Made by a program: the position numbers and the translations under genes
The notes under the pieces: model-generated
What the model was told of the DNA's origin: nothing
The model's database searches: none
What the model saw: the letters and a program-made list of their open reading frames with translations, nothing else
Source of the DNA: a virus
Lineage: Duplodnaviria; Caudoviricetes
DNA length: 64,000 nucleotides
Virus record (IMG/VR): IMGVR_UViG_3300043447_000068
Span: 1 to 64,000 of that record
Direction: 5' to 3' (one strand)
Shown here: one piece after another, positions 1,484 to 2,838 of the stretch
Numbering within the stretch: the first letter of the stretch is position 1
How the letters are laid out: the number at the start of each line of letters is the position of its first letter

Positions 1484-1654
1484 ATTTGCCAATCGTGGTC
1501 ACCTTTTGGTTAAGGAACTATTCCCATTGGCTGTTATACCTAGTGGATTAGCAGAGCAATCTCCATCGGGCTGAACCCCTTCGTATGATGCGTCCACAGG
1601 GTAGGTTTCGGTATAACAATCTCCACATAAGTTGTTCAGACTTATGCTTCTGAG
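1484..1654 (-). ncRNA. Candidate structured RNA C
   Basis: Stems TGTTATACC/GGTATAACA, GTGGA/TCCAC, CATAAG/CTTATG, GCCAAT/ATTGGC. Confidence 0.45.
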
Positions 1655-1728
1655 CGATCCTGACCAGACTTGAACTGGCGACCCCTACCGTGACAGGGTA
1701 GTGCTCTAACCAACTGAGCTACAGGACC
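1655..1728 (-). tRNA. tRNA-Asp(GUC)
   Basis: Acceptor GGTCCTG/CAGGATC, G73, loop CT-GTC-AC. Confidence 0.93.
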
Positions 1729-1920
1729 AAAAGTGAGTAGGTGGATTGTCTATTACCACCAAGGAGAAGTCTAGATACCATTTATAGTACCGCCTTAATC
1801 CTACCAAAGCCTTGCTCCGCTAAGAGCAGGGACGCTAATCCCAGCCTTGTGCAATTCTCGCCCCATCTAGACAAGGGACTTCGTTCTGCCATACTCCAGG
1901 TTCTGATCAGGAACCTGTTT
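1729..1920 (-). ncRNA. Candidate structured RNA D
   Basis: Stems CAGGTTC/GAACCTG, GTCTAGAT/ATCTAGAC, GGTGG/CCACC and two hairpins with identical TTAGCG loops. Confidence 0.45.
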
Positions 1921-1921
1921 G

Positions 1922-1994
1922 CTGCCCCACCTGGGATCGAACCAGGGACCTGCCGATTAACAGTCGGACGCTCTGCCAGCTGAGCTATAGGGCA
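1922..1994 (-). tRNA. tRNA-Asn(GUU)
   Basis: Acceptor TGCCCTA/TGGGGCA, G73, loop CT-GTT-AA. Confidence 0.93.
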
Positions 1995-2034: not shown

Positions 2035-2838
2035 CTATGGTATCACAAACACAATACCCTTGTCAAGTTTTTCTGACAAATATTTTGCTGCAACTCCTGC
2101 AGTAGCAGAAGAAGTTGTCTGCGGAATTTGTCCAAAAACATTTGACTTGTAAGAGAATTTGTTTGCTGGTAGTGAGCCAATGACATCAGTATAGCTGTCA
2201 CGACTTGATGCAGGAATATAAGATCCTCCAACGCCTGAGCCAACTGATACTGTATCTACAATACATGCTGGATATGATACTGGCTTAGACGGACCATTGT
2301 TTCCCGTTGCTGCAAAAAATGGAATACCAGCAGACTTCAGTGACGCAATGCTTGATCTAATTTGTGGATCAACAAGCGTAACATTTGTTAGTCCTGTTGC
2401 TGAAAGCTTACATTCACCCAACTTGGTCATGTTACCACTAAGGCTATATGAGAATGAAACTGCTCCAACTAGGGCATTGTTCTGCTCTACCCACTTAAGT
2501 GCAGATAGCAGGGTATTACCATTAACCCCTGAAATGCTTCCAAACTTTGAAACTTGTGATGCACGAATTACAATCAGGTTTAGCGATGGGTTTTGCTTCA
2601 AAGCAATCTCTGCCATAGCTGTACCATGATTAGCAGCATCTGAAACAGCCTTTGATGGTGTTGCATTGCTAACGCATCCATCAGCAACCACGCAGATCTG
2701 CTTTGCTGAAGTTGGCAATTTAGATAGATCAAAATAACTATCAATAATTACAAGCGACTTTGAATCAGCTGATGCCTGTGTTGGAATTGCTGTAAGTGAA
2801 ATGGCAGCAACGATTGCTGCATAAATAATTTTCTTCAT
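2035..2838 (-). CDS. Secreted subtilisin-like (S8) serine protease
   Basis: Signal peptide MKKIIYAA...AQA; triad motifs IIDS, NHGTAMA, TTSSAT; oxyanion ATGNNG; start moved to the MKK ATG. Confidence 0.75.
   Translation of the reverse strand: MKKIIYAAIVAAISLTAIPTQASADSKSLVIIDSYFDLSKLPTSAKQICVVADGCVSNATPSKAVSDAANHGTAMAEIALKQNPSLNLIVIRASQVSKFGSISGVNGNTLLSALKWVEQNNALVGAVSFSYSLSGNMTKLGECKLSATGLTNVTLVDPQIRSSIASLKSAGIPFFAATGNNGPSKPVSYPACIVDTVSVGSGVGGSYIPASSRDSYTDVIGSLPANKFSYKSNVFGQIPQTTSSATAGVAAKYLSEKLDKGIVFVIP
2037..2066 (-). promoter_or_regulatory. Sigma70-type promoter for the tRNA array
   Basis: TTGACA, 18-nt spacer, TACCAT with TG extension, upstream of tRNA-Asn. Confidence 0.6.

Follow-up and report, generated by a model that had tools for sequence, protein, structure and literature searches.

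The window analyzed here is a stretch of 64,000 nucleotides from a virus of the Caudoviricetes (IMG/VR record IMGVR_UViG_3300043447_000068, positions 1 to 64,000). Its minus strand carries an array of 17 tRNA genes in which most spacers are 0-4 nt long. One spacer of 192 nt lies between tRNA-Asn and tRNA-Asp and abuts both genes exactly, with the end of tRNA-Asn at 1921 and the start of tRNA-Asp at 1728 (ARAGORN and Rfam tRNA). The features at this locus are the following.

2037 to 2066, minus strand: site resembling a promoter (TTGACA-18-TACCAT with TG) a short way upstream of tRNA-Asn, found by consensus match only.

1921 to 1994, minus strand: tRNA-Asn(GUU), upstream of the manA-type RNA, called by ARAGORN and Rfam tRNA.

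1729 to 1920, minus strand: manA-type RNA of 192 nt, probably of a tRNA-array subclass, detected by Rfam RF01745 and by the subclass model R1.

1654 to 1728, minus strand: tRNA-Asp(GUC), downstream of the manA-type RNA, called by ARAGORN and Rfam tRNA.

Neither ARAGORN nor Rfam found a tRNA or a cloverleaf inside 1729-1920. The minus-strand ORFs across the spacer are all ≤36 aa, and the sole 80-aa ORF on the plus strand runs antisense through tRNA-Asn, so that no ORF here is credible. The first-pass annotation, made from the sequence alone, had described the spacer in this way, without cloverleaf or credible ORF and among spacers of a few nucleotides, and the gene calls and the ORF list bear this out. 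The gene for tRNA-Asn lacks a CCA end; CAAACA comes directly after the discriminator G. tRNA-Asp begins immediately 3' of the tail ...CACUUUU of the spacer RNA, and the last 1.7 kb of the contig downstream of this RNA has no ORF. The promoter-like site at 2037-2066 is a candidate start of a transcript with tRNA-Asn, the spacer RNA, and tRNA-Asp, and no minus-strand terminator-like sites were found between it and the array.

The spacer RNA is a member of the manA family. Rfam RF01745 (manA RNA) matches 1730-1916 on the minus strand with 61.5 bits, which is above its gathering score (55.2). The match covers model positions 1-192 and has E = 3e-13 for the 64-kb window. In the RF01745 consensus alignment, the conserved manA core is present, namely P1, P2, a CUGAAUAA-type junction, and P9 with GGUA...AAUCC. 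For the reciprocal comparison, we used R1, a covariance model built from alignment A1 (74 distinct homologues) with the pseudoknot left out. R1 scores the window RNA with 161 bits at 1729-1920 as a single copy in the window, and it picks up 51/51 cyanophage-type manA RNAs with 35-58 bits over its full length. The first-pass annotation had named the manA motif among the known RNAs of phage tRNA arrays, had called the spacer an unexplained and distinct RNA, had proposed a comparison with Rfam, and had held that a match to a known family would remove the novelty. Such a match was found. As it is full-length, lies above the gathering score, and is accompanied by reciprocal detection with R1, both descriptions had to be given up. 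For this window, one "unknown RNA" is struck off the list, and the interest of the RNA lies mainly in what the manA family gains from it.

Relatives were sought in IMG/VR contigs with the P9 23-mer and three degenerate patterns. We obtained about 118 elements of the type found in the window, here called class T, plus 85 cyanophage-type (canonical) manA elements. R1 gives 82-192 bits for class T and 35-58 bits for canonical manA. With RF01745, the class T scores are about 52 to 73 bits, and roughly half of the ~31 class T loci tested reach the gathering score; the current Rfam model therefore misses about half of class T. In the part of the 2010 seed alignment that was available, the subclass-specific strings are absent and UUAGCG occurs four times.

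Among cultured phages, Rhodococcus phage Francesca carries a class T RNA (L012:2478-2664, corresponding to PP978770.1 ~76479-76665) with 72.9 bits. It lies exactly between tRNA-Met and tRNA-Lys and is unannotated in the record. BLAST with two further class T members returned Francesca only. A divergent manA-like RNA with an R1 score of 39.6 bits was seen in Microbacterium phage A3Wally (L013:2482-2727, MZ150783.1 83301-83546), where it fills an unannotated 246-nt gap between two tRNA-Val genes. This RNA is longer and has an insertion; it has three UUAGCG hairpins, and its P9 is capped by GCGA. The phages Zooman and Big4 give the same BLAST match as A3Wally, and Big4 annotates a 'hypothetical protein' over it. 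The Streptomyces phages BillNye and Daubenski and the Arthrobacter phage Mimi have no manA. Cyanophage ACG-2014g was considered as a carrier and rejected, as it has no manA and its BLAST match is a chance match inside a CDS. A search of 185,579 prokaryotic species genomes with the twin-loop pattern gave 6 matches, none of them manA-like.

The RNA folds as listed below, with all elements on the minus strand. The stems described in the first-pass annotation were all found where it had placed them.

P1 (1897 to 1917): This is the hairpin CAGGUUC/GAACCUG (1917-1911 with 1903-1897). Its loop is CUGAUCA, for which most relatives have YGACGR. P1 (helices 1-2) is 85-93% paired, with changes on both sides in 7/7 pairs.

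P2 (1892 to 1896 and 1735 to 1739): The closing helix pairs the 5' strand GAGUA (1892-1896) with the 3' strand UACUC (1739-1735). P2 (helix 3) is 98.4% paired, and double changes occur in 5/5 pairs.

P2a, P3, and L3 (1851 to 1889): P2a is GCA/UGC (1889-1887 with 1853-1851) and encloses the P3 hairpin and its loop. P2a is lengthened by one more pair, formed by RNA positions 34 and 68; this pair is 100% paired and shows 5 pair types. P3 is GUCCC/GGGGC (1879-1875 with 1864-1860), and the loop L3 is UUGUCUAGAU (1874-1865). P3 is 74% paired, and its register varies by clade. The P3 register that Rfam gives for the window (CUUGUC/GGCGAG) was rejected because it clashes with the pseudoknot and because GUCCC/GGGGC suits the relatives better.

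L3 strand of the pseudoknot or kissing helix (1865 to 1872): The strand is GUCUAGAU, and its partner is 1776-1769.

P8-interior partner strand (1769 to 1776): The strand is AUCUAGAC, and its partner is 1872-1865.

P4 (1806 to 1848): The stem AAGGCU/GGCUUU encloses P5 and P6, and there is no P7. RF01745 model positions 99-115, which form the third P4 hairpin with an ACCA loop (P7), are deleted in the window RNA.

P5 (1842-1829): The hairpin is GGGA-UUAGCG-UCCC with the loop L5 at 1838-1833.

P6 (1828-1813): The hairpin is UGCUC-UUAGCG-GAGCA with the loop L6 at 1823-1818.

P8 domain (1762 to 1802): The outer stem is AGGA/UCCU (1802-1799 with 1765-1762). This stem (helix 11) is 85% paired, with double changes in 4/4 pairs. 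A possible inner hairpin GGUAC/GUAUC (1791-1787 with 1778-1774) overlaps the pseudoknot strand, and its register, as read from the sequences, is not conserved between clades.

P9 (1740 to 1760): This is the hairpin GGUGG/CCACC (1760-1756 with 1744-1740), whose loop of 11 nt is UAAUAGACAAU. Pairing in the helix is complete (100%), and GGUA...AAUCC is invariant in 74 sequences, as are U30, G31, C33, G35, and A36.

The folding energy alone is not above chance (z = -1.64; 13/200 shuffles fold equally well), and the support for the structure comes from covariation. In alignment A1 (74 distinct homologues), 82.3% of the cells pair, versus 60.9% after shuffling and 37-48% with the partners shifted by 1-3 columns, and the covariation scores are 0.48 versus 0.16 in the controls. 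In alignment A2 (77 sequences, re-aligned with R1), 84.9% pair versus 60.4% shuffled. Over both alignments, the slid pairing is 34-48% and the covariation score 0.48-0.58 versus 0.16-0.18. P1, P2, P4, P5, P6, the P8 outer stem, and P9 all change on both sides. The earlier proposal of a structured non-coding RNA with a long-range stem and two UUAGCG hairpins thus agrees with the covariation among 74-77 homologues, by which evolution is seen to maintain these elements.

Compared with RF01745, class T has the same order of helices (P1, P2, P3, P4, P8, P9), the same C-W-GAAYRA junction (CWGAAYRA), and P9 with GGUA...AAUCC. L3 pairs with the 3' side of P8 in both, both are of viral origin, and each model detects the other group. 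Canonical manA has three P4 hairpins with GUGGUG in L5, a GNRA-like L6, and ACCA in L7, whereas class T has two hairpins, lacks P7, and has UUAGCG in L5 and L6. The L3-P8 pairing is 5-9 bp long and variable in class T, whereas in canonical manA, it is an invariant GGCA/UGCC. Finally, class T lies within tRNA arrays or makes up a small gene by itself, whereas canonical manA occurs in 5' UTRs, which is the basis of its 'Cis-reg' label.

In the window, GUCUAGAU/AUCUAGAC joins L3 to the interior of P8, and double changes are seen in 8/8 pairs. Class T members have 36 distinct sequences of this helix, including GCCAGCAA/UUGCUGGC, GUUUAGGUG/UACCUAAAC, GCAUGU/ACAUGC, and GUUAGA/UCUAAC. The RNA's own partners score 6.2 on average, and swapped partners score 4.2. 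In cyanophage-type manA, the same two places hold an almost invariant GGCA(U)/(A)UGCC. In the available part of Weinberg et al. 2010 (PMC2864571), a pairing of manA is labelled 'pseudoknot?', and we infer that this is the pairing between L3 and P8. The near-invariance in canonical manA probably explains the question mark in that part of the paper. Class T gives this doubtful pseudoknot the strong covariation support that is wanting in the canonical set. The helix may form within one molecule or between molecules, as the covariation fits both.

In L175:11864-12054 (minus strand), a third UUAGCG lies in L3 and is perfectly paired with UCGCUAAC in P8 (GUUAGCGA/UCGCUAAC); a UUAGCG loop is therefore capable of Watson–Crick kissing. 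In the window clade, UAGACAA in L9 (1745-1755) is complementary over 7 bp to UUGUCUA in L3 (1868-1874), both on the minus strand. This complementarity overlaps the pseudoknot strand and could be an alternative pairing in this clade.

UUAGCG in L5 and L6 is invariant or nearly so among the 74-77 relatives, with CUAGCG, GUAGCG, and UUAGCA as rare variants, and the P5 and P6 stems that carry it covary freely. Inside the RNA, UUAGCG has no conserved Watson–Crick partner. In the 800-nt flanks, YGCUAA occurs 42 times versus 28 ± 10 in permuted controls, which is not significant, and a literature search on UUAGCG gave nothing relevant. Near-invariant identical hexaloops on covarying stems, with no conserved RNA partner found for them, speak for a protein-binding small RNA. 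It would be a scaffold, sponge, or decoy comparable to 6S or Y RNA, and its twin loops would be bound by a dimeric protein of the phage or the host, a dimeric protein site having been suggested in the first-pass annotation as well. The occurrence of the module two or three times per RNA (three times in A3Wally and in L175) points the same way. The gene neighborhoods speak against it. No protein family is consistently adjacent; the most widespread one is found in 12/43 sequence clusters and has no Pfam match, and among 10 neighbor proteins scanned against Pfam, 0 matched an RNA-binding or RNA-processing family. Likewise, no RNA-related protein family recurs beside class T RNAs in the 43 clusters. 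We consider protein binding as the main role unlikely. It is, however, compatible with our main explanation, a free-standing class T manA RNA.

The genomic context separates class T from canonical manA. tRNA genes are present at 103/118 class T loci versus 3/85 canonical loci (Fisher p = 8e-37), and the RNA abuts a tRNA on the same strand at 82/118 versus 1/85 loci (Fisher p = 1e-26). The loci compared are similar in size; class T loci average ~9.0 kb and canonical ones 7.1 kb. Upstream, class T is flanked by tRNAs of 12 kinds, and on the downstream side, 10 kinds occur; therefore, the link is to tRNA arrays generally and to no single tRNA. tRNA arrays are not mentioned for manA in the cyanophage S-CREM1 paper, in the cage preprint (bioRxiv 10.64898/2026.07.01.735769), or in the available part of the 2010 paper. 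From this context, together with the detection and the fold, we consider it likely that the window RNA belongs to a distinct viral manA subclass, class T, which is associated with tRNA arrays and is free-standing and not a 5'-UTR switch.

A regulatory role was the first proposal for the family. In the available part of Weinberg et al. 2010 (PMC2864571), manA was rated a riboswitch candidate from its complexity and its position in cyanophage 5' UTRs. Applied to the window, the RNA would be a cis-regulatory element that senses a metabolite and controls the downstream genes, here the remaining tRNA genes of the array. In a few class T members (e.g., L194, L202, and L183), a ribosome-binding site and an ATG do come directly after the RNA, and these members may have a cis-acting role. 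The window RNA, however, lies between two tRNAs with no ORF in the remaining 1.7 kb downstream, and its tail offers no alternative of terminator and anti-terminator; tails are not conserved among the relatives either. Moreover, the flanking tRNAs vary between phages, and five relatives are units with their own promoter and terminator and have nothing to regulate. A riboswitch is thus quite improbable here, and we return to the free-standing RNA.

The ends of class T RNAs are defined in more than one way. The 5' start (A/U/C)AACA follows a tRNA in 44/77 elements, a tRNA-like T arm in 10, and a -10 box in 12. In these 12 elements, the -10-like box, often with TGTG, sits 6-9 nt upstream of the start. 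A terminator-like hairpin follows the RNA in 9 class T members, and promoter and terminator are both present in five (L191, L027, L219, L231, and L033). As the same RNA ends are made in two ways, by flanking tRNAs or by promoter and terminator, we regard the RNA as a discrete, free-standing molecule. Production of class T as a discrete piece, cut from tRNA precursors or made with a promoter and terminator of its own, speaks for a free-standing mode of action of manA-type RNAs.

In tRNA processing, an RNase Z-type enzyme trims the 3' trailer of a tRNA that has no encoded CCA, and RNase P cuts at the 5' end of a tRNA. Judging by strand, spacing, and the promoter-like site, the window RNA would be co-transcribed with the tRNA array. 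Its 5' end would then come from an RNase Z-type cut at the 3' trailer of tRNA-Asn, which is expected because no CCA is encoded, and its 3' end would come from the RNase P cut at the first base of tRNA-Asp. The RNA at 1729-1920 is thus probably cut out by tRNA-processing enzymes. The released RNA of ~190 nt would act as a free-standing structured RNA, in line with the relatives that are promoter-to-terminator units with the same ends. The earlier description as a distinct processed non-coding RNA therefore stands in part: the RNA is structured and most likely released from the tRNA precursor, and it is not distinct from manA.

Another way to such ends is self-cleavage. HDV-like ribozymes occur directly behind some phage tRNAs, and the window RNA, which starts right after a CCA-less tRNA with the conserved (A/U/C)AACA, could in the same way be a self-cleaving ribozyme or a processing aid that frees the neighboring tRNA ends. 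Scans of 1700-1950 and 1-2100 with ribozyme covariance models, however, gave no match at E up to 1. The promoter-driven members, which have no tRNA ahead of them, share this start nucleotide, and cyanophage manA RNAs are almost never found beside tRNAs. In addition, intact RNAs were used in the cryo-EM work (bioRxiv 10.64898/2026.07.01.735769). We therefore regard a ribozyme as highly improbable and keep to excision of a free-standing manA RNA by tRNA-processing enzymes.

Upstream of some manA RNAs, T-arm-like sequences such as GGGAGTTCGACTCTCCC...CCAC directly precede the start (L044, L024, L195, L032, L022, L236, L171, L172, and L008). ARAGORN and Rfam call no tRNA in the T-arm-like 30 nt upstream of these manA starts. 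The sequences may belong to unusual tRNAs or serve as tRNA-like signals for processing. In L173 and 38 similar contigs (e.g., L178:3563-3761), the manA RNA follows tRNA-Ser(GCU); ~133 nt of unassigned sequence separate manA from tRNA-Tyr in most of them, and tRNA-Tyr abuts in five contigs. Phage-encoded tmRNA genes were seen ~0.2-1.5 kb from class T manA in three contigs, at L171:3393-3690, L022:5911-6245, and L170:6175-6257.

How the released RNA might act is suggested by work on its relatives. A cryo-EM study reports that manA RNAs assemble into decamers built from pentamers and into a shell of 60 copies (60-mer; bioRxiv 10.64898/2026.07.01.735769). The contacts named are the kissing loops L5-L7', L8-L9', and L3-L8' and a GNRA contact L6-P6', with L5-L7' present in both pentamer types described. 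This preprint reports in vitro work at high RNA and Mg2+ concentrations (bioRxiv 10.64898/2026.07.01.735769). The RF01745 consensus loops fit the reported L5-L7' and L8-L9' kissing, with GUGGUG/ACCA and CUGUA/UACAG, respectively. Class T belongs to the same family, and the contact loops L3 and L5-L9 of the preprint are the positions that define it. The L3-L8' kissing was reported there, and L3 and the P8 interior covary in class T. On the other hand, class T is not among the RNAs of the preprint, in which 'tRNA' occurs 0 times. GOLLD and ROOL are large structured phage non-coding RNAs close to tRNA genes. They resemble class T in being structured phage non-coding RNAs near tRNA genes, whereas they are much larger and have a different fold, and the window spacer matches no such Rfam family.

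In class T, the L5-L7' contact is impossible because P7 is absent, and assembly, if any, needs other contacts. L8-L9 complementarity gives no signal in class T, and neither L3-L9, L9-P8, nor L1 contacts give a family-wide one. The covarying L3-P8 helix is the strongest candidate for the L3-L8' contact of the preprint and may be that contact. By homology with the manA RNAs studied by cryo-EM, the window RNA would probably self-assemble through loop contacts, and the UUAGCG hairpins would be a second module, contacting either RNA or protein. On this analogy, multimers built of RNA only and held by loop-loop contacts are likely for the window RNA. That the identical loops make tertiary contacts, as the first-pass annotation suggested, or quaternary ones is reasonable, as manA RNAs are reported to assemble via loops (bioRxiv 10.64898/2026.07.01.735769). 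That class T RNAs are excised by tRNA-processing enzymes of the host and then form RNA-only multimers or shells in the infected cell, with L3-P8 and UUAGCG as intersubunit contacts, is a further proposal, which we put forward tentatively and consider rather doubtful. If true, a physiological RNA particle would be made alongside the phage tRNAs and might hold or shield tRNAs or host factors. For sixteen years, manA was listed as a probable cyanophage gene switch, and in 2026, RNA-only cages were reported from the test tube. L3/P8 and the UUAGCG hairpins are the loops worth mutating, and Rhodococcus phage Francesca on Rhodococcus equi offers a culturable test system.

WhiB-family genes occur near class T RNAs in 8/43 sequence clusters (e.g., L209:115-597), and actinobacterial hosts are therefore indicated for many carriers; in the window contig, no WhiB gene was found. 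The DnaE of the window phage, whose G+C content is 41%, is 55% identical to that of Streptomyces phages (Stanwilliamsviridae). From Francesca, the WhiB neighbors, and this DnaE, the class T carriers look like actinophages.

The array holds further long spacers on its minus strand. The 170-nt spacer between tRNA-Asp and tRNA-Thr (1484-1653) has no Rfam match, and seven other contigs share it with 89-98% identity (L026, L232, L188, L185, L174, L010, and L007). These relatives sit at the same place behind manA and tRNA-Asp, even where the manA copy clearly differs. The spacer is probably a second array-borne RNA. The 6-mer UGCUAA, which is complementary to the twin loops, occurs in it but is not significant. 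The 213-nt spacer between tRNA-Glu and tRNA-Trp (1119-1332) likewise has no Rfam match; L174 and L185 share it with ~96% identity. Within the array, upstream of tRNA-Met, positions 942-970 of the minus strand form a perfect consensus promoter, TTGACA-17-TATAAT.
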